A stretch of 63,939 nucleotides of DNA, counting the filler, from Licmophora abbreviata (Eukaryota): assembly GCA_900291995.1 (NCBI GenBank). It is 6 parts of 6 records of this genome, joined end to end, with 100 filler letters (N's around TTAATTAATTAA, not from the genome) between each part and the next. Parts side by side here need not be neighbours in the genome. Positions count along the whole stretch, not along the records: positions 57,483 to 62,769 come from OLMU01000962.1; 5 more parts are not named here. The stretch is one strand, 5' to 3'. This document shows positions 15,895 to 63,872 of this stretch, one piece after another. Made by a program: the position numbers and the translations under genes. Every line of letters begins with the position of its first letter. Position 1 is the stretch's first letter. Below the pieces are notes generated by a model that searched no databases, was not told the DNA's origin, and worked only from the letters and a program-made list of their open reading frames with translations.

Positions 15895-15994
15895 NNNNNN
15901 NNNNNNNNNNNNNNNNNNNNNNNNNNNNNNNNNNNNNNTTAATTAATTAANNNNNNNNNNNNNNNNNNNNNNNNNNNNNNNNNNNNNNNNNNNN
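15895..15994. other. Artificial contig spacer
   Basis: 100 nt: N-run + TTAATTAATTAA (stops in all six frames) + N-run. Confidence 0.98.
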
Positions 15995-21319: not shown

Positions 21320-23041
21320 TCAAAAACACGACCAAAATTGTTGATGCGCTGCCATGGTGGATCGAATGTTCTTGGCGGCAGCGGCGTCGATCAGATCCAA
21401 CACATTCTCACCATCGCGACCCGCCACATCGTCTCGAAGCTCCTTCTCGCTTCTCGCGGCACTCGTGGGGTCCAGTAGAGTCCTTACGACTTGCTCGACG
21501 CATTTGCCGAGAACGCTTCTGACATAGCCCCCTTCTAAAGTACAAACGACCTTGCCATCTGCCAACGTCATGAGTGCGCTCATCAACCGCCCAAAGCATT
21601 CCGGAGTCACGTTGCATTCGCCTACCGGTAGAGCAATGTGAGAGTGGAGGGCGGTCAGAGGGTTGTTGACTCGGGGATGTCGCCGGCATATTACAATGCC
21701 TTATTACACAACTTACCCATATCGCCTAGAGCGGCATCAAATCCAGCGCTAACCAAAACCAAATCTGGCTTATACTCGGCCGCTACGGGCAGCAGCAGCT
21801 CCTCCCACACCGCTAGATATTCATCGTCGCCCATCCCCTTCCGAGTCCATCCAACATTGATATTGTAACCAGCACCTTTGTCCGAGCCTACAAACGTTGG
21901 CCCGCCATTCTGTAAGAAAGGATAAAAGTTTCCACCATGCCAGCGATGGACCGAAAAGTATAGCACGTTTGGATCATTGCGAAAGATAGCCTGTGTCCCA
22001 TTTCCATGGTGCACGTCCCAGTCGACGATTAGCACTCGTTGGACTCCCAGCTTTGCTTGCGCATACGCCGCCGCCACAGCCACATTGTTCATGACACAGT
22101 ATCCCCCCGCTAGACCAGGCTCCGCGTGATGACCTGGCGGACGAATGACGGCAAATCCATTGTGCATGTCTCCCTGGACGACACTGGAAACAAGACGACA
22201 CAACGACGTGGCAGCCACCCGCGCTTCCTTGACGGAATCGGGTGTGAGGTAGATGGACTTGTACTGTTCGGCCTCACGGTCCAATCGATCACAACAAGAG
22301 CAGCTACTGAGCTTGTCGAGTCTGAGTCGTACACATGGCAACACATCAATGAGAATATCTGTTATGTAAAGTGCGAAAAATCACAGCATAGCACCGCGTC
22401 GTCGATGGAGACGAAAGTACGCACCTCTGCAAGTAACCTGGCAAATGAACGCGCAGGTAATCATCTTGCTCTAGAAATAGACTCTCTGGACTATCGCAAT
22501 TCTGTTTCTCCACCACACAACATCTTTGCTGCAAATCGCAGTGTTGCAGGTGTTGCAGGATGGTGGTTATCCTCGCCGGTCGTTCCTTGTGCAGTCGATT
22601 GTGGCGGTCAAAATGTTTCGCGCCGACCTCGAAGACAAGTCCCGTACGCAAATCGGTTGCTTCCGATATCCTCTTGGGCGGGTCGACGAGTGCGACGAGC
22701 CGATTGCCAAACTCCGGCAGCGCCTGGTGCCTCCCAATCCCCGCAAAGACTTCTGCGCCCTTGCCGATGGCAGCAGCACACTCTTCGTCGTCTTCAATGA
22801 AGAAGCCGTCGGATGCCTCGGACAGCGTCTCTGTCTCAGTCGCATACGGCGATGACGAAGTACGACGATGCTGCCGGAGTAGAAGCCTGTCCTTCTTTTC
22901 AGCTAAACTGACTTGGGAAGACGGCCTTGAGGCCAGCGGAGTGGTGGAGCCCTCTTGAATGGTGTCGATGCTAAAGAGCGACGAGCTTCGTCGCTTCATC
23001 TCTCCCCCCATGCACTGGTCGGACGCTATTCTTCGTTTCAT
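21320..23041 (-). CDS. Class II histone deacetylase, single catalytic domain, 3 exons
   Basis: HKERPARI, RPPGHHA, GYCVMNNVAVAA, IVDWDVHHGNGTQ, VLVSAGFDA and LEGGY; GT-AG introns join three ORFs. Confidence 0.92.
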
Positions 23042-23094: not shown

Positions 23095-23194
23095 NNNNNN
23101 NNNNNNNNNNNNNNNNNNNNNNNNNNNNNNNNNNNNNNTTAATTAATTAANNNNNNNNNNNNNNNNNNNNNNNNNNNNNNNNNNNNNNNNNNNN
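23095..23194. other. Artificial contig spacer
   Basis: N-run + TTAATTAATTAA + N-run, 100 nt. Confidence 0.98.
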
Positions 23195-24145: not shown

Positions 24146-24509
24146 TTCACTCTTTTGTTTTTACCAGCGACACTTTTGCAGGAATGTATCCTGGGGAGTC
24201 CAGTCTCGACTGTGTGTAGTGAGCAGTCTGGTGAGTGATGATGGTGACCTCGTCGCCGATGTCGCGTCGTCGTGGCTCATCATCGCGCGCACCGTTACTA
24301 ATTTGTTACACTCACAAAATTGGCGACAAAACGACGCCGCGTATCTTTTGGATCTTGTCAATGGTGATGCACGTCTCAACAATGATGCAAGTCTGAACTT
24401 CTTTGGAACTGTCTTTTGTAGTACTTACCTTCATTACACTGCATGATCTCCTGAATGCATTGTATCGCCTGAGGTTTTCAGTTTTGACCACGAACTCGTA
24501 ACCAAAACC

Positions 24510-26396
24510 ATGCCAGACAAGGACGAACGAAAATATAACCCTGGCCAAGATTCGCCGTCACAGAGTGAGATGGGCACCGTTGACGATGCAGCGGCTGCAA
24601 CCTCGACACCACCTACGCAGAATGACTCCACAATCGCGTCCATGTTCTTTGCGTTAGACCAGCTCGTGAATGTCTTTGGCTTTGATCAAGAGACGGCCCA
24701 GCAAGCGATTGAAGCCGTCGGAACCGACGTGACGACGGCATACAATTTTATTCTCGACAACAATCTCGCGCCCGATCAAGGAGGCCCGGTTGTCCCCATT
24801 GCCAATTGTCCGCATGTGCAGCATCACTTGCGCCTATCTCCCCCGGAACTCCCAAATCCCCAGACAGCTGTATGCGACCATTTTTCTACTACAAGTACTC
24901 CCACTGATGGCGCTGCCGTTGGACAAGCCAAAAGCGACGTCTCGGACATTAATGGCAGGTGTCCCCCAGGAGAAAACTGGGTTTGCTTGCAGTGCTCGGC
25001 TGTAAGGTGCTCCCGCTACATCAATGGCCACGGCGTGGATCACTACGAAGACTCCTTGAAGTCGGACCCAGGCGTCGATCAGGCCGGACATTGCATCGCT
25101 GCAAGTCTCGCTGACTTGAGTGTATGGTGCCATGCCTGTCGCGCCTATCTACGTGATGCGAAACTCGATGCTATTATACGGAAACTGGAGGAACTGAAAT
25201 TTGATAAAGTCACAACCACTATCACTGCGACGGAGGGGCACACGGAACAAACTCCTACTGGTGAAGCATTACCTTCCACCGTCGAGGACAATGACGTTGG
25301 CAGAGGCCTGCCTCTGCACTTTGGCGATGAAGAGGAAATCGGCTACTTGGAAGGCGAGGCTACTGAATCACCGCATTTGCAATATCCTTTTGGTACACTT
25401 CCTACCAGTCTAAGCGACGTTGCAAACTTTATTCAATCAGACAAGTGCAAGTCAGTCCTCATTTTGGCAGGTGCGGGTATGAGTGTTGCGTCTGGCATAC
25501 CAGACTTTCGAAGTGTAGGTGGACTCTACGATACACTTCAACCGGAATTGTTGACCGCATCGGAGGTGGAGCGAGATGCCATTGGCATGGATCCCACGGT
25601 GGCACTGGAACAAGGAATGTTCTTGCAGAATCCGCTCCCGTGTTTGGAACTCAAGCGACCCTTCATTCTCGGTACACGAGAACGAAAGTGGAAGGCAACC
25701 CTGGCCCATCGGTTTGTCGAGTTGCTACATACCAAAACAGGTAAACTGACTCGACTGTACACACAAAACATCGATGGCCTCGAGGGGCAATGCAGCAAGC
25801 TCCCACGAGAGAAGGTTGTGGCGGTGCATGGATCGATGGATCGAGCAGAATGCGCTCGTTGCGGAACGAGCTCGGACTTTGGAGAGTTCTGTGACATGGT
25901 AGAACGAAATATCAAGGATATATCCGGACAAGATCCGTCGGCGCCAAAAGAGTCGAGTTTGATTCCGTGCCAGCTGTGTGGCTACGCCGCGGTCAAGCCG
26001 TCCATCATTCTTTTTCGCGCAAACCTTCCCGATGAGTTCTTCGATCGGGTCCCGCAAGATGTGGATCAGGCTGATATGTTGATTGTCATTGGAACGTCTT
26101 TGGCGGTAGCTCCCGCCAATACGTTGGTGCATCGAGTGAACCCGTCTGCATTGAGAATGGTAGTCAACAACGAACCCGTCGGTATGCGACTCGGAATCGA
26201 GTATGGAGAAAATTCCAGGCGCGACTGCTTTGCGCAAGGCAATTGCGACAGTGTGTTGTTAGATCTCATGAGTCATTTAGGATGGCTGGATGAGTTGGCT
26301 CCGCTCGCTGACCATCTTCCGGACGAGAGCGCAGCGCTTCTGAGGGCGAAACTCGAGTCGAAAGAGAACTTGGTCACTCGCGACGAGGACATTTAA
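24510..26396 (+). CDS. UBA + ZnF-UBP + class I sirtuin fusion (NAD-dependent deacetylase)
   Basis: UBA-like ALDQLVNVFGFDQETAQQAIEAVGTDVTTAYNFILD. ZnF-UBP CPH...ENWVCLQCSAVRCSRYINGH...H...SLADLSVWCHACRAY. SIR2 motifs GAGMSVASGIPDFRS, YTQNIDGL, HGS, CxxC..CxxC and GTSL. Confidence 0.92.
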   Translation: MPDKDERKYNPGQDSPSQSEMGTVDDAAAATSTPPTQNDSTIASMFFALDQLVNVFGFDQETAQQAIEAVGTDVTTAYNFILDNNLAPDQGGPVVPIANCPHVQHHLRLSPPELPNPQTAVCDHFSTTSTPTDGAAVGQAKSDVSDINGRCPPGENWVCLQCSAVRCSRYINGHGVDHYEDSLKSDPGVDQAGHCIAASLADLSVWCHACRAYLRDAKLDAIIRKLEELKFDKVTTTITATEGHTEQTPTGEALPSTVEDNDVGRGLPLHFGDEEEIGYLEGEATESPHLQYPFGTLPTSLSDVANFIQSDKCKSVLILAGAGMSVASGIPDFRSVGGLYDTLQPELLTASEVERDAIGMDPTVALEQGMFLQNPLPCLELKRPFILGTRERKWKATLAHRFVELLHTKTGKLTRLYTQNIDGLEGQCSKLPREKVVAVHGSMDRAECARCGTSSDFGEFCDMVERNIKDISGQDPSAPKESSLIPCQLCGYAAVKPSIILFRANLPDEFFDRVPQDVDQADMLIVIGTSLAVAPANTLVHRVNPSALRMVVNNEPVGMRLGIEYGENSRRDCFAQGNCDSVLLDLMSHLGWLDELAPLADHLPDESAALLRAKLESKENLVTRDEDI

Positions 26397-27254: not shown

Positions 27255-27788
27255 TTACCTAAAGATATCCTTGGTTGCCTCCAGATCCTTCCGGAATCGC
27301 TTCTCCGCCCTCTTGTTCCGTTCTGCCACCAGACCCTCCAAGCCACCAAACCGCGCCCTCGCCCGCCGTCGAATTTCTGCTCGGTTGTACAGCTTCATTG
27401 GCGTCCACCCCTTATGACGAGGGTTCGCCTTCTCTACAAATGAACAAACCGCCAATGTTCCCTCCGGCAGACAGTACATCTGCATCGCTTCCTTCTTGGA
27501 GACGTGTACAGAGGCGTTGACCTCAAAGTCCTCCAGCTCCAATTCCGCTTCCTCGCCTTTCTGCTCGTCATATTTCTCGTCGCCTCTACTCCCGCCGCCG
27601 CCATTTACTTTCTGCCGCTTTGCTTCTCGGTCCCCGCCCGCCCCTCCATTGCCATTGCCTGTCGATGATGCATGAGGCGACGTTGGTTCGGCCTCCGCCT
27701 CTTGCATCAGCTTGCGACGCTTCTGAATTTCCAGCGCCCGTTCTCGATTCCTTCTGCTTCTTTCTAGTTGTTCCTCCGTCAATGCCAT
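27255..27788 (-). CDS. XPA: XPA-like nucleotide excision repair protein (N-terminal helix + XPA_C, no zinc finger)
   Basis: LTEEQLERSRRNRERAL; SKKEA...YCL, K.NPRH..WTPMKLY and RFGGLEGL..ER.KR. Confidence 0.8.
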   Translation of the reverse strand: MALTEEQLERSRRNRERALEIQKRRKLMQEAEAEPTSPHASSTGNGNGGAGGDREAKRQKVNGGGGSRGDEKYDEQKGEEAELELEDFEVNASVHVSKKEAMQMYCLPEGTLAVCSFVEKANPRHKGWTPMKLYNRAEIRRRARARFGGLEGLVAERNKRAEKRFRKDLEATKDIFR

Positions 27789-27934
27789 GATTGTCTACGC
27801 CGAGCGTGCTGTCGATCCCTGCGGCCGTCTCCTGCAATAGTGTCGTTCGCGTTTGCTTGCCTGGGTCGTTTTGTTGTGTGCGGTGCATGCCTTTTTCGAT
27901 CCGTGGTGCGTCGGTCTCCCTCTATCTCTTTTTC

Positions 27935-53163: not shown

Positions 53164-53427
53164 ACGCGCCGTCGGGTGATACGGGAAGCCGACCGGAAGC
53201 ATTGGTGTACACAAACATTTATTAGATACACGAAAAAGTTAGTTAGTAAGGAAGTTTAGGAGGGATAGGAAAGCATGCTCTCCCATGAGAGATACCGGTA
53301 CACGCAACATGTCGCGCGAACCCACGTTTGAATGAATCACGGCGCGGGCTAAATTTCTCGCACTTCTGCATGATGCTATCTTGTCTTTCGCGGATCTTCG
53401 ACCCTTCACCACATATTGACGGAAACG

Positions 53428-54402
53428 ATGACAACGATGAAGGTTCCTGTCGACTTGGCAAGCTTAGCCCGTCTCCTCTTGTCTCCAGATTGCTCTGTGG
53501 TTATATTGACGGGTGCTGGGGTCAGTGTTGCTAGTGGCATTCCTGATTTTCGCAGCCCCGGCGGGATGTATGACAGCCTGCGTCCTGAACTAATTACCGC
53601 TACGAAAAGGCAACGAGAGGACATGAGAATGGACCCTACGAATGTCGTTTCATGGGATATGTTTCGCGAGAATGCCTTTCCGTATCTGGAGGTACGGCGA
53701 CCCTTCATTCTGGGAACACGAGATAAGACATGGAAAGCTACGATTGCGCACCGATTTGCGGAACTTCTTCACGTCAAGACTTCCAATCTGACGCGCGTGT
53801 ACACACAGAACATTGACGGGTTAGACCGACAGTGCGAGAAGATACCTTCAGAAAAGATTGTCAATGTCCATGGATCGATTTCGAAAGTCTCTTGTGAAGG
53901 ATGCGGTCACAAGGAAGACTTCGATGCATTCTGCGATGCTGTCGAAACTAGTATCAAGGACATATACAACTTGGAACCGGGCGCCCCCCAGGAGTCGACC
54001 AGCATTCCCTGCTCGAGCTGTGGGAAACCTCTCGTAAAGCCATCAACGGTTCTTTTCGGAAGAAGCTTGCCATCCGAGTTCTTTGAACACGCCCATGACG
54101 ATTTGCCTAGTGCGGACGTCTTGATTGTCGCGGGAACTTCGCTTGTTGTTTCTCCTGCCAACAGTCTTGTATACAACGTTCCGGAAACAACTGTTCGAGT
54201 TGTAGTTAATAAAGAAGAGGTTGGATCAGAGCTTGGTATCGATTACGGTCCCAAGGCAAAGCGGGACTTCTATGCGCAAGGCTCATGCGATGAGGTTTTC
54301 TTGGATCTCATTGAACAGCTAGGATGGCTTGACGATCTTGAACAGAGTATCGGCGATCTACCAGAACAGAGCGCGGAACTAGTCCGACAAAGATGCTTGT
54401 AA
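53428..54402 (+). CDS. Stand-alone class I sirtuin
   Basis: GAGVSVASGIPDFRS, YTQNIDGL, HGS, CxxC..CxxC, KPSTVLFG and GTSL. Confidence 0.92.
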   Translation: MTTMKVPVDLASLARLLLSPDCSVVILTGAGVSVASGIPDFRSPGGMYDSLRPELITATKRQREDMRMDPTNVVSWDMFRENAFPYLEVRRPFILGTRDKTWKATIAHRFAELLHVKTSNLTRVYTQNIDGLDRQCEKIPSEKIVNVHGSISKVSCEGCGHKEDFDAFCDAVETSIKDIYNLEPGAPQESTSIPCSSCGKPLVKPSTVLFGRSLPSEFFEHAHDDLPSADVLIVAGTSLVVSPANSLVYNVPETTVRVVVNKEEVGSELGIDYGPKAKRDFYAQGSCDEVFLDLIEQLGWLDDLEQSIGDLPEQSAELVRQRCL

Positions 54403-54974: not shown

Positions 54975-55074
54975 NNNNNNNNNNNNNNNNNNNNNNNNNN
55001 NNNNNNNNNNNNNNNNNNTTAATTAATTAANNNNNNNNNNNNNNNNNNNNNNNNNNNNNNNNNNNNNNNNNNNN
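54975..55074. other. Artificial contig spacer
   Basis: N-run + TTAATTAATTAA + N-run. Confidence 0.98.
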
Positions 55075-57382: not shown

Positions 57383-57482
57383 NNNNNNNNNNNNNNNNNN
57401 NNNNNNNNNNNNNNNNNNNNNNNNNNTTAATTAATTAANNNNNNNNNNNNNNNNNNNNNNNNNNNNNNNNNNNNNNNNNNNN
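57383..57482. other. Artificial contig spacer
   Basis: N-run + TTAATTAATTAA + N-run. Confidence 0.98.
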
Positions 57483-57651: not shown

Positions 57652-59579
57652 CTACTTGACACTCCAGTCGACGCTGTCCTTTCCATTGCAAACGAGTGCT
57701 TCGTTCGCCCTTGAAAAGCACTTCGAACCTAGAAACGGAGCCTTAGTCTTGGTAGCCCCGAGCGGTGAAGGATGGCTTGTCTTAATGATAGTATGGCGCA
57801 ATCCATCAACACCACTGGCCTTTTTCGCAGCCGGATTGCCCCACAGAAGAAACACCAGCCCTTCCTTCTCCGTGTTTAGAGTATCGATCACTGCGTTTGT
57901 AAACTTCTCCCAACCTCGTCCGCTGTGACTGTTGGCCTCACCCTCGCGTACCGTTAGCACGGCGTTTAAGAGAAGCACGCCCTGTTCTGCCCAGCATTTC
58001 AGGTATCCATGAGATGGCGCATCGATGCCAACATCCTCTATAGCTTCTTTAAAGATGTTCTTCAGGGACGGTGGTGGTCGGACGCCCTTTCGAACCGAAA
58101 AGGCCAAGCCGTGCCCCTGGCCACGACCGTGGTACGGGTCCTGGCCGACGATAACAACGCGTACATTCGAGAGAGGACATAGATTCAAAGAAGTGAATAT
58201 CTCGTCTTCTGGGGGAAAGATTACCTGTCCCTGCCTTCGCTCCGCGTCGATAGAATCCGCCAGTGCAGAAAACGTAGAACTGTTTGTCGCGTTAGAAAGC
58301 GCTGCCTTCCAGCCCGGATCCTTCAAGCCAGACAGCAATCTGTCGACTGCTTCCTGTCCAGAGCTGGGAGCTTTTGCTGTGTCGCTGACTGACTCGGTGT
58401 TGCCTTCATCTACCGGCACAGACGAGAATCGCCGAGAAAGCGGCATGCTGAGTTGGTCCTCGGTGTACCAGATCGTTCGACCATGCGGGCCGTTCGTTTC
58501 CCGAATCACTGGCATCCCTCGAGCACAGTACTCCCTACCATAGCACTGCAAGTCAAACTCAAACTGCCCTCGTTGGCCTTGTGTATCGCGGTAGCTCCCG
58601 CCCTGTCTACTGAGACCCTGTGCTCGATACGAGTCTGCAGCGATACCTCTGAGCTCGCGAAACAACATGCGCAGTCGCACTTCGTCAAGTTCCTCCAAGG
58701 AAGCAAACGGATCGACCGCAGCACGGTAAAGGCCCTCTGCAAGGATATAGTTTCCAACTCCACTCACTTTCTTCTGATTCATGAGGAACCTACAAATGTT
58801 GGTTGAGTTCTTCGACTCGGCCACGACACCGAGGAACGAGTCTTCGTCGGTGCTGGGGTCTAGAATGTCAGGACCCAACGAGTCAAGCTTCTCTTTCAGC
58901 TCTTTGGTCCGATTACGAGAATTTGAGAGTTCCAAAGTTCCGAGGGTCGATAGTAAAAGATGGACCGTCGCTCGCTCGACTGTGGATCGAGCAGATCAAG
59001 CGACCATCGCGCCGGCGCCTGGCCACTCCCACCCCCTCCTGCTTGATGGAGGCGCTCATTGACGAAGCGGCCGCTCATTCCCAGTGTGATCCAGATGCTC
59101 CTTTGATAATCTTCATCCTCATCGTGATTGTTTCCTTTGTCCAGCACCAAGTAAATGAACTTTCCCTTGGCACTCCACTGTTCAATAACATCAACGGACT
59201 TGGCCGTAGTGTTGGCCTCGTCATGAGCCGGTGAATCGAGGGTAGAGGTGAACGCATCATACCCAACTGGCATCCCATGCCGAGTATAGCGTCCAGAAAG
59301 AAATGAAATCCCAAGCAAACGCATGCCCACGCCACCTTGAAGCTGGTCGACGAGAGTGCGAACTTCAGGCCCCTCCGGCATCATCCTCGGTTGCGTTCGC
59401 GTCACAATGTACCGCCATGGAGTCGGAGCACTAGGAGCTATTCGAATTGCATACTTGGGCAAGAACGATGTTCTTTGAATTGAAACCGCTAATCCCCGGG
59501 CGGAGCGGAAGTGCATCATCATGGTTAGCCCCAAAGAAAGGTGCAATGCAAGAAGTCGAGAGGTGCGCAGCGTCGCCAT
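57652..59579 (-). CDS. Fpg/Nei DNA glycosylase fused to family-1 uracil-DNA glycosylase; frameshifted at about 58915-58950
   Basis: Fpg motifs MPEGPEV, KGKFIY, LGMSG, DPRNFG (third frame), LGPD and LMNQKKVSGVGNY..E.LY; then UNG motifs GQDPYH, GLAFSV, PPSL, GVLLLN and HPSPL. Confidence 0.9.
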
Positions 59580-59921: not shown

Positions 59922-61010
59922 TCACATCAGCAGATCAAGCACAAGCTCAAGATCCTTATCATCCTCCAGATTGTCCAAGTCAAGAAACGGAAGATCCGGC
60001 AGGTCGTTTGCCGCCGCTGCCATCAGTGGCTGCATCGACGCGGCAAATTGCTCTTTTTCATCGAGTTGTCTATGGTCGTGCTGTTGTGACAATTCAAGCG
60101 CTGTTGTTTCGGACTGTCTAGGAACATACTCGTAGTACAGAAAGGCACGATCGATATCAACAAGCAGCATGCAGCATACTTGATCAACTTCCACTGGATC
60201 TCCATCAGGAATCGTCTTGATTGTCACTTTCGACAATCGACTTGGCCGAAGAGTGACTCCCGGAGTAGCATGAATAGATATCTGACTCGCAAGGCACCGA
60301 GTATGCTTCACTCGCTCCGAAGGTGAAAGGAACAAGTCCACTACAGCTTGCTGATTGGCTTGGTACGTTTCTTTAATCGTCCGATACGTCGCGACATTCT
60401 CTTCAAACGCTCGAGACAAAAAGTAGCGCGAGACTCCCTTGTACATCTCCCGAACCCATATCCAACGATTGCCAAGATCATCTTGCGTATGAATCGGACA
60501 ATCGACTGCCATCAAGAGACTTTGAGGCAGCTCTGTGTATTCGATTGGATCCCCGACAACTTGCTGTTGTGGAGTCGGCGTAAGCAGAATGGGGAACAAA
60601 AAGTCGCATCCCCTTTGCTGATCTGTTTCACATAGTATCTGATCCATGGAAATGCCACACCGAGCTGCCATACTGGAAGCTCGCGAGAGCAACGCAAAAC
60701 TTCGTCGACGAAAGGCGAAGGAAACCCAGGAGCGAATCAAGTGCCGGAGTCCATAATGATCAGGTCGGAGAGCCTCGGGCTTGACTTCAATTGACAGACA
60801 CGCATCTTCCGACGCTGGTAAGCCATCCATCATGACACCATCCTCATTGCGCTGTCGTTTTCCGCTGCCACGAGTAACAGCGCGCTGGCCTTGTCGAGAT
60901 TCATGCAGCACGCATTCGCGGCCAAGTCGAAGGCAGCGAGAGCACGATCTTTCTGGAAGCGAATGATCGCACTTGACTTTTGCAGCGTGACATGCAGTGC
61001 AAGCTACCAT
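59922..61010 (-). CDS. Zn(II)2Cys6 binuclear-cluster transcription factor
   Basis: ACTACHAAKVKCD...CSRCLRLGREC at the N-terminus; acidic C-terminus. Confidence 0.85.
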   Translation of the reverse strand: MVACTACHAAKVKCDHSLPERSCSRCLRLGRECVLHESRQGQRAVTRGSGKRQRNEDGVMMDGLPASEDACLSIEVKPEALRPDHYGLRHLIRSWVSFAFRRRSFALLSRASSMAARCGISMDQILCETDQQRGCDFLFPILLTPTPQQQVVGDPIEYTELPQSLLMAVDCPIHTQDDLGNRWIWVREMYKGVSRYFLSRAFEENVATYRTIKETYQANQQAVVDLFLSPSERVKHTRCLASQISIHATPGVTLRPSRLSKVTIKTIPDGDPVEVDQVCCMLLVDIDRAFLYYEYVPRQSETTALELSQQHDHRQLDEKEQFAASMQPLMAAAANDLPDLPFLDLDNLEDDKDLELVLDLLM

Positions 61011-61359
61011 AGCCTTTGATCAACTAACTTGAAAGAGGGAGGACAAGAAGGAGATCTGACGCAAGGCTGTTTACACTGTGTGTTGCCCATGTTCGAAATG
61101 GAACAATCTTCAAACTTGCGACGAAGAAGAAACTCGCGCCCGAACACGTACGCACATATGACGTCACAAGGGACTGACTCAGTCCCGAGCACGAATCTTC
61201 CGGGAGTTTGACGTAGAAAAGTACCGGAGTTTGGCGTTGAAATTTGAACCTCGCGAGGAAGTGAGTGAGTCAAAATGATGACGAGAGACGAGAGCCGCCG
61301 ATGATGCGGTCACAACGCAACAAGAGAGGAACGAGACTACCTATCCTCTCTACTTGACC

Positions 61360-62454
61360 ATGACGGCCTCCATTGCTAGGATGGATCCGGCGTCCTCAGG
61401 CGACATGCCAGTGCGATCGTTGACGCCATCTTACTCAGCGGAGAGCGTGCTGCACAGTGTATTGGCTGGATACGCGGCGGGGATCTCAGGGACGCTTATC
61501 GGCCATCCATTGGATTCTGCCAAAGTCTGGGCGCAGACCAACATTCGAGGAGGAGTACGATCGAAGTCTGTATCGATGTTATCACAGCAGGCGACGACAC
61601 TAGCCTCCTCTGCAGCTTCGAGTCGGCAAATGAGTACAGTGGCTCACTCGGCACTGCGGCGAAGGACGGTCTGGGATCTTCGCTCACTCCGATCACTCTA
61701 TGCCGGCATCGGAGGACCGCTGGTTACGGTCGGTATGGTCCAGAGCGTCAACTTCGCTATCTATGACTCCACGCGGAGAATTTTGCATCGACGTGACTTT
61801 CCGGATGCATCGGAAACCCATTATCTCGACCACGACTCGCTCGCGAACGTCACGATGAGTTCAGTATTGGCTGGGACTGTTCTGTCAGTCTTTACCAGTC
61901 CCCTTTTGCTACTCAAGACGAAGCAACAAATTATGGACTGGAGTTTTCGAGAGGCCCTTTGGGACACAGTATCATCGAAACCAGGAATACGCGTGTCGGC
62001 ACTTTCGAACTTTTATGTGGGTTTCGCTCCGCATGTATTGGCAGAGACGGCTGGTCGCGGTATTTACTTTTTCGCATACGAGGGAATGAAACGAGCGTGT
62101 CTGCAACAGAAGGAACAGCGATGTTATAATGGAAAGGAGGATGCGCGTGTCGTTCTGAGTCTCCAGGAGCGCATGGCGAGCGCGGCCGCGGCGGGAATTC
62201 TGTGTTGGACTGCCATCTTTCCGGTGGATGCGTTGCGGAGTAGATCCTATGCACAATCGCTTGTATCAAAAGCGCCGGATACATCCAAGTCCACATGGCA
62301 GCTGGCCATGTCCGTCTATCAAGAGAAGAAGAGCCTGAGAACGTTCTACCGTGGCTTCAGTGTCACCGTCATGCGGGCGGGGCCTGTGGCGGCTGTGGTT
62401 TTGCCTGTCTACGATACCACATTGGAATGGCTATCCCAAGACAGGAGTAGCTAG
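61360..62454 (+). CDS. Mitochondrial carrier (SLC25) family protein
   Basis: Three repeats with HPLDSAKV, SPLLLLKT and FPVDALRS; FYRGF..TVMRAGP. Confidence 0.88.
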   Translation: MTASIARMDPASSGDMPVRSLTPSYSAESVLHSVLAGYAAGISGTLIGHPLDSAKVWAQTNIRGGVRSKSVSMLSQQATTLASSAASSRQMSTVAHSALRRRTVWDLRSLRSLYAGIGGPLVTVGMVQSVNFAIYDSTRRILHRRDFPDASETHYLDHDSLANVTMSSVLAGTVLSVFTSPLLLLKTKQQIMDWSFREALWDTVSSKPGIRVSALSNFYVGFAPHVLAETAGRGIYFFAYEGMKRACLQQKEQRCYNGKEDARVVLSLQERMASAAAAGILCWTAIFPVDALRSRSYAQSLVSKAPDTSKSTWQLAMSVYQEKKSLRTFYRGFSVTVMRAGPVAAVVLPVYDTTLEWLSQDRSS

Positions 62455-62769: not shown

Positions 62770-62869
62770 NNNNNNNNNNNNNNNNNNNNNNNNNNNNNNN
62801 NNNNNNNNNNNNNTTAATTAATTAANNNNNNNNNNNNNNNNNNNNNNNNNNNNNNNNNNNNNNNNNNNN
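62770..62869. other. Artificial contig spacer
   Basis: N-run + TTAATTAATTAA + N-run. Confidence 0.98.
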
Positions 62870-62906: not shown

Positions 62907-62925
62907 CCATAGAGTGACTTTATGG
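62907..62925. promoter_or_regulatory. Putative LysR binding box (T-N11-A inside an inverted repeat)
   Basis: CCATA-N9-TATGG just upstream of the LysR start; T62910 and A62922 are separated by 11 nt. Confidence 0.55.
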
Positions 62926-62933
62926 GGGTGCCG

Positions 62934-63872
62934 ATGAACCTGTCCTTTCGTCAGTTGATGACCTTCCGCGAGGTGATGCGCACCGGGTCGATCAGTCAGG
63001 CGGCGCGCGCGCTTGGGCGCACACAGCCAGCGGTGAGCGCGATGATCGCGGGGCTGGAGGATGAGCTGGGCTTCAAGCTGTTCGAGCGGCAGCAGGGCAA
63101 GCTGACGCCGAGGCCCGAGGCGCGGTTCTTTCTGGAGGAATGCGACGATATCCTGTCCCGGCTGGAGCAGACCAAGCGCACGCTGAGCGGCATTTCCAAG
63201 CTGGAGGCGGGGCATCTGCGGATCGCCTGCCATCCTGCGGCGTCGGGGTTTTTCCTGCCCAAGGTGCTGACCGAGTTCCTGTCGGACAAGCCGGGTATCC
63301 GGGTGTCGCTGATGATGCGGTCCTCGTCATTGATCGAGGAGTTGATCGCCTCGCAGCAATTCGACGTAGGCTTTGCCGAGACGCCCGAGCCGCGCCCCTC
63401 GATCCGGCAGAGCGATTTCGATCTGGAATGCGTCTGCGCGATCCCGGCGGGCGATGACCTGGCGGCAAGGCCGGTCATCACGCCCGCCGATCTGGATGGG
63501 CGGCGGCTGGCGGTGCTGTTTGCGGAACACCCGACCTATCGGCAGACGGTGAAGGCATTCGATATGGCCGGGTGCCGGTTCGAGCCGATGTTCGAATTGC
63601 AGACCTTTCTGCCGGGGATGCGGTTCGTGGGGGCGGGGCTGTGCTACATGATCTGCGACATGATCACGGCCCATAGCCATCTTGCGGGTCTGGCGGCGGG
63701 CAGCGGTGTGGTGGTCCGCCCGTTCCGACCGAGGATCGGCAGCCGGGTGTCCGTGCTGACCCCGGCACATCGACCCGGCTCGCAATTGTCCGAAGCGTTC
63801 TGCGACATGCTGCGCGCAAGGGTCGAGGACATGCAGACGGAGATGAAAGAGATCCTCGGGCAACCGGTATAG
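62934..63872 (+). CDS. Bacterial LysR-family transcriptional regulator
   Basis: HTH RQLMTFREVMRTGSISQAARALGRTQPAVSAMIAGLEDELGFKLFER plus a substrate-binding domain; GC-rich codons; no intron; G-rich RBS-like sequence upstream. Confidence 0.95.
   Translation: MNLSFRQLMTFREVMRTGSISQAARALGRTQPAVSAMIAGLEDELGFKLFERQQGKLTPRPEARFFLEECDDILSRLEQTKRTLSGISKLEAGHLRIACHPAASGFFLPKVLTEFLSDKPGIRVSLMMRSSSLIEELIASQQFDVGFAETPEPRPSIRQSDFDLECVCAIPAGDDLAARPVITPADLDGRRLAVLFAEHPTYRQTVKAFDMAGCRFEPMFELQTFLPGMRFVGAGLCYMICDMITAHSHLAGLAAGSGVVVRPFRPRIGSRVSVLTPAHRPGSQLSEAFCDMLRARVEDMQTEMKEILGQPV

Follow-up and report, generated by a model that had tools for sequence, protein, structure and literature searches.

A diatom gene predicted to encode a single-chain Nei-uracil-DNA glycosylase

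Does a single diatom gene encode both the enzyme that excises uracil from DNA and an enzyme able to cut the abasic (AP) site that uracil excision leaves behind? Uracil-DNA glycosylase (UNG), a monofunctional enzyme, produces an AP site; enzymes of the Nei type cleave such sites via an N-terminal proline. Both are textbook enzymes known as separate proteins, and one of the standing questions of base excision repair is how UNG's AP site passes safely to the enzyme that follows. The question is raised by a locus of Licmophora abbreviata (NCBI GenBank assembly GCA_900291995.1) located in the 63,939-nucleotide stretch of DNA analysed here, which we term the window. The reading that we favour, with a probability of roughly three in four, is that the locus is a nuclear gene of a diatom and encodes a single-chain Nei-UNG enzyme, which would act by the hand-off proposed below, and that the breaks in its assembled reading frame are most likely errors or minor variants.

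Two overlapping minus-strand open reading frames (ORFs) span positions 57652-59579 and make up the whole gene: that is, an upstream ORF (ORF-A; 58896-59579; 227 aa) comprising a leader and the Fapy_DNA_glyco N-terminal domain, and a downstream ORF (ORF-B; 57652-58935; 427 aa) comprising H2TH and UDG domains in one open frame. Read in the direction of translation, the minus strand specifies a leader of 66 aa that precedes the second Met of 'MMPEGPEV' (59382-59579); the Nei/Fpg N-terminal catalytic domain, from Met67-Pro68 to ...RRSIFYY, in frame -2 (58950-59381); a first frame break, with one extra base between ...TAT and GAC... (58949); the 11 codons of DPRNFGTLKFS in frame -3 (58916-58948), followed by TAA (58915-58913); a second frame break, with one extra base deduced from homolog spacing (interval 58912-58921); the H2TH and a Cys4-less beta-hairpin finger, FEFDLQCYGREYCARG...GPHGRTIWY, as indicated by PF06831, by the structure model and by conservation (58441-58911); a linker of ~40 aa, marked by low pLDDT and unconserved alignment columns (58318-58440); and a family-1 uracil-DNA glycosylase, as indicated by PF03167 and by alignments to solved UNGs, that ends in a TAG stop at 57654-57652 (57652-58317). 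The initial annotation had described an H2TH/finger region that continues in one open frame, through a linker of roughly 40 aa, into a complete UNG, downstream of and independent of frameshifts. The results bear out each part of this description. The ORF at 57652-58935 contains both Pfam domains, the finger ends at approximately aa 165 and the UNG core starts at approximately aa 207, the motifs GQDPYH (58146-58129) and HPSPL (57774-57760) both read as intact in the sequence, and the upstream frameshifts are present in the assembly, where three frames are used, with the H2TH-to-UNG ORF open downstream of them.

The window consists of separate contigs joined by five N44-TTAATTAATTAA-N44 spacers (15895-15994, 23095-23194, 54975-55074, 57383-57482, and 62770-62869), which are six-frame stop linkers; gene order across the spacers is therefore uninformative on linkage. 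The Nei-UNG gene is confined to one 5.3-kb contig (57483-62769), so that its linkage is shown only within that contig, where its true neighbours are a mitochondrial carrier protein (61282-62451; plus strand) and an ORF bearing a Zn2Cys6 cluster domain of the fungal type (59925-61019; minus strand). The final contig (62870-63939) has ~65% G+C, vs. ~51% elsewhere in the window, and contains a complete bacterial-type LysR regulator ORF (62913-63869; HTH_1 and LysR_substrate); it is probably a bacterial contig in a eukaryotic bin or in a non-axenic assembly. Other contigs contain, at 24447-26393 and 53374-54399 on the plus strand and at 21323-22380 and 27258-27794 on the minus strand, two ORFs for sirtuins, of which one also has a zf-UBP finger, a histone deacetylase that an apparent intron of ~87 nt divides, and an XPA_C-domain ORF. 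A Pfam search of 122 stop-to-stop ORFs shows other split domains (HDAC, kinase, and DEAD helicase) that are compatible with introns. A variant genetic code was considered and rejected: seven single in-frame stops, each separating long ORFs that share a frame in other parts of the window, give no sign of reassignment, all three stop codons being used, two of the seven stops falling just after a GTGAGT-type splice-donor sequence, and the other five falling at apparent gene starts or in untranslated stretches.

The UNG half of the gene is recognized over its entire length. PF03167 (UDG) matches ORF-B aa 253-414 with 69.7 bits (cut-off 24.3), and the whole of ORF-B aa 207-426 can be aligned with family-1 UNGs of solved structure at E-values of 1e-70 to 1e-60 (among them 3tr7, 2boo, and 1akz), the alignment to chain residues 11-227 of 3tr7 having E 9.5e-70. 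Identity to family-1 UNGs (human 1akz, E. coli 1eug, Coxiella 3tr7, and Deinococcus 2boo) is ~50% over the whole catalytic domain. Residues Q265, D266, P267, Y268, H388, P389, S390, P391, and L392 are at least 90% conserved, and the UNG residues F279 and N324 are also kept. The UNG of the window differs from 3tr7 and 2boo by an insertion of 3-4 residues after HPSPL (GATKTK); the post-HPSPL loop has pLDDT below 50 at residues 546-557 in a model of the full-length homolog P0001, but not in the model of the window protein. A further difference is at the N-terminus: animal UNG has a short targeting/PCNA-RPA tail, whereas the N-terminal extension of the diatom UNG is a whole second enzyme.

Structure models are consistent with two folded units connected by a flexible linker. 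The AlphaFold model of ORF-B has a mean pLDDT of 87, with values above 90 for H2TH and most of UNG; values for H2TH exceed 95, and values for 10-residue blocks of UNG range from 78 to 98, most being at least 90. The linker has pLDDT below 50 (aa 172-190 of ORF-B; residues 322-347 of the P0001 model), and both its sequence and its length vary among homologs, in unconserved columns. The models have pTM of 0.54-0.60 (0.54 for full-length P0001), and the low pTM suggests that the two domains of P0001 have no fixed mutual orientation. The UNG half of the P0001 model superposes on UNG structures with TMt of 0.83-0.93 (49 UNG chains among the matches listed). The Foldseek search with this two-domain model returned only UNG chains among the matches listed, and thus no structural ranking of the Nei half.

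The Nei half is recognized both by domain profiles and by conserved residues. PF01149 (Fapy_DNA_glyco) matches ORF-A aa 67-174 with 30.8 bits (cut-off 25.5), and PF06831 (H2TH) matches ORF-B aa 20-100 with 39.8 bits (cut-off 34.7). Met67-Pro68 of the window aligns with residues 1-2 of the mimivirus Nei1 chain (3a45/3a42), and the Pro codon (59378-59376) is part of an MPEGPEV motif located 66 aa inside the longest ORF. Residues G59, G61, N62, Y63, and E67 of H2TH and R153 of the finger (GRTIWY) are at least 90% conserved among homologs. The finger has no Cys4 site, having only two Cys residues, the second of them unconserved, and its modelled hairpin has strands at 142-146 and 155-158, with pLDDT ~90; sequence and model together indicate that it is a predicted 'zincless' finger with a conserved Arg. 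The fingers of mimivirus Nei1 and NEIL1 likewise are without a Cys4 zinc site. Of the solved structures, mimivirus Nei1 (3a42, 3a45, 3a46, 3vk7, and 4nrw) matches the Nei part best and is reached at E 1.5e-18 with homolog P0001; identity is low, and the N-domain of the window alone reaches just E 1e-3. We take human NEIL1 (1tdh) to be among the closest known systems as well. Mimivirus Nei1 and NEIL1 stand alone, whereas the diatom Nei module has a leader before it and UNG after it. We conclude that the Nei part is a predicted NEIL1/mimivirus-Nei1-like glycosylase/AP-lyase.

The same architecture is found across diatoms. A word-indexed homolog search, in which 8000 candidates were scored, yielded 7048 homologs at E 0.001. 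The architecture search that the initial annotation had proposed, for Fapy_DNA_glyco, H2TH, and UDG in one protein, finds all three Pfam domains in 91 of the best 120 of these 7048 (52-68% identity; 566-735 aa), H2TH and UDG in 16, and UDG alone in 13. The named sources among the best 120 are all diatoms: Fistulifera solaris, Thalassiosira exigua, Thalassiosira profunda, Conticribra weissflogii, Stephanodiscus triporus, Cylindrotheca closterium, Cylindrotheca fusiformis, and Mayamaea pseudoterrestris. Three MMETSP transcriptome ORFs marked 'complete' (P0023, P0071, and P0079) contain all three domains, and a single message across the linker therefore exists in other diatoms. Relatives on metagenome contigs occur at four loci, none near-identical to the window and one of them a full relative (L001; 60% identity) with the entire protein in a single 659-aa ORF. 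The source annotations of the homologs read solely 'uracil-DNA glycosylase' or 'hypothetical'. Stand-alone relatives of the Nei half occur in the sister group of diatoms, as a 309-aa entry of Triparma strigata (43% identity, 99% coverage) and a shorter entry of Tetraparma gracilis; these entries, which are gene models, suggest an origin of the fusion on the diatom stem. By comparison of sequences, we conclude that the fusion is real and conserved in diatoms, and is not a local accident.

A leader upstream of the Nei module is a frequent feature of these proteins. In the first 200 residues, 87 of the best 120 homologs show the motif P-E-x-P-E-V, preceded by a leader of at least 25 aa in 54 of the 87. 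In those leaders, which are built of S, R, L, T, and A, D and E together account for 1.1% of residues and S, R, L, and T for 46%, and a hydrophobic stretch is present near the start in 42 of the 54. The leader of the window is likewise rich in R, S, T, and L and poor in acidic residues. The leader is probably an organelle-targeting presequence. The chemistry of the Fpg/Nei family requires a free N-terminal Pro, and a leader-bearing gene would therefore need either an internal start at the conserved second Met or exact removal of the leader.

In the window as assembled, the domains are not all in a single reading frame: two +1 shifts ~30 nt apart, at 58949 and within 58912-58921, separate the N-terminal domain from the H2TH-UNG ORF. 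Alignment of five full-length homologs to the window by tblastn uses three frames: frame -2 for the leader and for MMPEGPEV to ...RRSIFYY (59579-58950), with 58% identity in the N-domain for homolog P0001; frame -3 for DPRNFGTLKFS (58948-58916), which is the family's conserved 'D-x-R-N-F-G-T' strand (homolog consensus YYHDxRNFGTLKF); and frame -1 from RTKELKEKLDSLGPD through to the stop codon. Comparison with homologs shows that no residue is missing in the window and that there is one surplus base at 58949 and one within 58912-58921. For the latter, the distance from the K of 'KF' to the L of 'KL' is 13 residues in seven of seven homologs, a spacing that the window fits only with one base dropped in 58912-58921. 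An intron in place of the frameshifts is rejected, the homology being gap-free through all three frames, and programmed frameshifting is scarcely credible, being unsupported and having relatives with a plain ORF.

Contigs of four marine-metagenome runs were aligned to the gene. One record of 151 nt (X2 record 8; 58921-59072; depth 2; a single record) is identical to the window save for one omitted letter, at 58949: that is, at the very base predicted to be extra. No read or contig of the four runs covers 58903-58920, a search of metagenome contigs for exact 30-nt matches returned none, and no RNA run contains the stretch. Decay of the copy was assessed against 30 diatom homologs, at columns with conservation of at least 90% and with out-of-frame tails set aside. 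The window copy deviates at 5 of ~210 such columns, and leave-one-out controls deviate at 1-19, so that there is no sign of decay.

These results bear on three readings other than the one that we favour, of which the most serious is that the two insertions are real and the locus is a pseudogene or null allele, yielding a truncated N-domain and perhaps an internally started H2TH-UNG fragment that would keep uracil excision. Both shifts are present in the assembled sequence, from which no product with both the catalytic N-domain and UNG could be made, and no read contradicts the second shift. Diatoms are diploid, and a single broken haplotype could be assembled from a diploid genome. On the other side, the environmental contig that lacks the first extra base is otherwise identical, the remaining ~1.9 kb has neither a stop nor a further shift, conserved columns are preserved to the extent seen in intact homologs, and two insertions 30 nt apart in an otherwise clean gene more readily suggest a local fault of the consensus in a 5.3-kb contig. 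We consider a null allele unlikely, though by no means negligible. At least one of the insertions, and perhaps both, is probably not biological, and it is likely that both breaks reflect the fragmentary assembly, as errors of its consensus or as minor variants, and not the biology of the gene. We conclude that the natural gene is probably unbroken and that the breaks are confined to the assembly.

The two other readings concern the family as a whole. That the fusion is a gene-calling artefact, in which adjacent Nei and UNG genes are read as one ORF, could be suspected from the many entries that are automatic calls on short metagenome contigs and from relatives recorded as separate N- and C-terminal pieces. 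But the frame is open over a linker of variable sequence in the 91 three-domain homologs, the 'complete' transcriptome ORFs run through all three domains, and the pieces break inside the Nei part, with ~64% of it covered, and not at the linker, as fits an intron within Nei; an artefact is accordingly very improbable. In several environmental relatives, a Fapy piece, N-terminal and covering ~64% of the Nei part, and a UNG piece, C-terminal and with or without a recognized H2TH, are recorded on contigs of equal length (8207, 40221, 3826, 6257, 5814, and 3199 nt); such pairs probably derive from the same contig, with an intron in the H2TH region that prokaryote-style callers could not splice. The remaining reading accepts the fusion and takes its N-terminal module to be a handle by which UNG binds DNA damage or AP sites, the module having no functional lyase in the main product, which bears the leader. 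This reading draws on the internal position of the Pro in the longest ORF of 54 of the 87 motif-bearing homologs, set against the family's need for a free one. Yet 'MPEGPEV' is preserved in nearly all homologs, a second Met stands before it, after a first, in 75 of the 87, and the other 12 models begin directly at 'MP'; a catalytic N-terminus that has been kept argues for its use, and we regard a mere handle as improbable.

Combinations of Nei with UNG are also found outside diatoms. An exhaustive search with HMMER, covering 1.84 billion cluster representatives, returned 16,387 matches at E ≤0.001, and a diatom-Nei profile matched 32 of the best 150 of these: 26 strongly (E 1e-25 or better), one as a fragment, and five weakly. 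The five weak matches, together with P0263, have H2TH and UDG by Pfam; the named proteins of this set, Pelomyxa schiedti KAH3743406.1 (P0187) and a Rhizamoeba saxonica transcript (P0184), both are from Amoebozoa. The amoebozoan proteins share with diatoms the domain order, Nei then UNG, but are only 35-38% identical to the window ORF, start with MPELPEV, have a different finger, and have a much longer linker (~330 aa in Pelomyxa P0187 by domain search). A quick tree was built by maximum likelihood for 146 UNG domains, those of the window, of four named diatoms, and of 141 representatives, nine of the 150 being left out for their partial domains, and was rooted at the midpoint. In this tree, the 25 diatom-type fusions fall within one group of 30 rows (SH-aLRT 91), and the six amoeba-type rows are placed at several points beyond the midpoint root. 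The tree, whose support is modest, suggests that the amoebozoan and diatom fusions arose separately. The amoebozoan Nei-UNG proteins appear to be unstudied.

Other partners of UNG came to light in a Pfam survey of 29 long representatives from the HMMER search. UNG is combined with HhH-GPD/Nth (P0136 and P0201), with OGG_N and HhH-GPD (P0158), with Exo_endo_phos of ExoIII/APE type (P0168, a cluster of six members), with photolyase (P0229 and P0265), with RNase_T (P0172), with zf-PARP (P0191), and with Macro (P0162). Most of these representatives are environmental proteins. Several of the partners cut AP sites, which by the gene-fusion argument favours the idea that the activities are coupled. 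In one diatom-type Nei-UNG protein of 1011 aa (P0121), the frame continues with no stop into an Exo_endo_phos domain (endonuclease/phosphatase fold; aa 745-944); P0121 is a single record, on one Logan contig of 3888 nt, and is possibly a three-enzyme repair chain, the alternative being a read-through artefact.

According to the mechanism that we propose, a chain with, in order, a leader, a Nei glycosylase/AP-lyase (N-domain, H2TH, and zincless finger), ~40 aa of flexible linker, and a UNG of family 1 would handle uracil in two steps. The UNG module would flip out and excise uracil, leaving an abasic site, and the tethered Nei module would then cleave that site, by formation of a Schiff base on its N-terminal proline and by beta,delta-elimination, so that the toxic AP intermediate would be passed on within one molecule. 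The Nei module would, in addition, excise oxidised bases independently. Translation from the conserved second Met would provide the free N-terminal Pro directly, and the leader would place the site of action in an organelle. The features for both activities are present in the window: the Pro after Met, the finger Arg, GQDPYH, and HPSPL. We infer, as is fair from these features and in line with the initial annotation, that one chain could remove both uracil and oxidised bases and nick the resulting AP site; the coupling of the two modules is predicted from their architecture.

The nearest parallel is a reagent. USER enzyme combines E. coli UDG with endonuclease VIII and has the same pair of activities, removal of uracil followed by AP-lyase cleavage by a Nei-family enzyme; USER, however, consists of two separate bacterial proteins used in vitro, whereas the diatom form would be one natural eukaryotic chain, with predicted coupling (PMC1874603). 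A search of the full-text literature, with subscription journals outside its coverage, found no study of a Nei/Fpg-UNG fusion, in keeping with the initial annotation, whose author knew of no characterised example; one text lists both enzymes, as separate viral genes (PMC5871332). Nei-UNG appears to be an uncharacterised, new architecture of two well-known enzymes. A broader proposal, which we offer tentatively and at somewhat less than even odds, is that diatoms have a natural one-chain 'USER', probably organellar, and that it is one case of a repeated, independent fusion of UNG to an AP-site cutter, selected for hand-off. The partners under this joint proposal would be Nei (in diatoms and in Amoebozoa), Nth, OGG1, and ExoIII/APE, with Nei-UNG plus an endonuclease/phosphatase fold in one diatom contig.

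Nei-UNG introduces no new kind of enzyme; its interest is as a clean natural experiment on how AP sites are handed on, and as a likely key factor in the repair of DNA in diatom organelles. A conserved natural fusion allows a direct test of intramolecular hand-off, by comparison of the fused protein with its split halves, and the tension between a leader-bearing protein and the need for a free N-terminal proline is a testable puzzle. A single-protein uracil-nicking reagent is a possible use. For diatoms themselves, Nei-UNG may define the main route by which uracil and oxidised bases are repaired in organelles.
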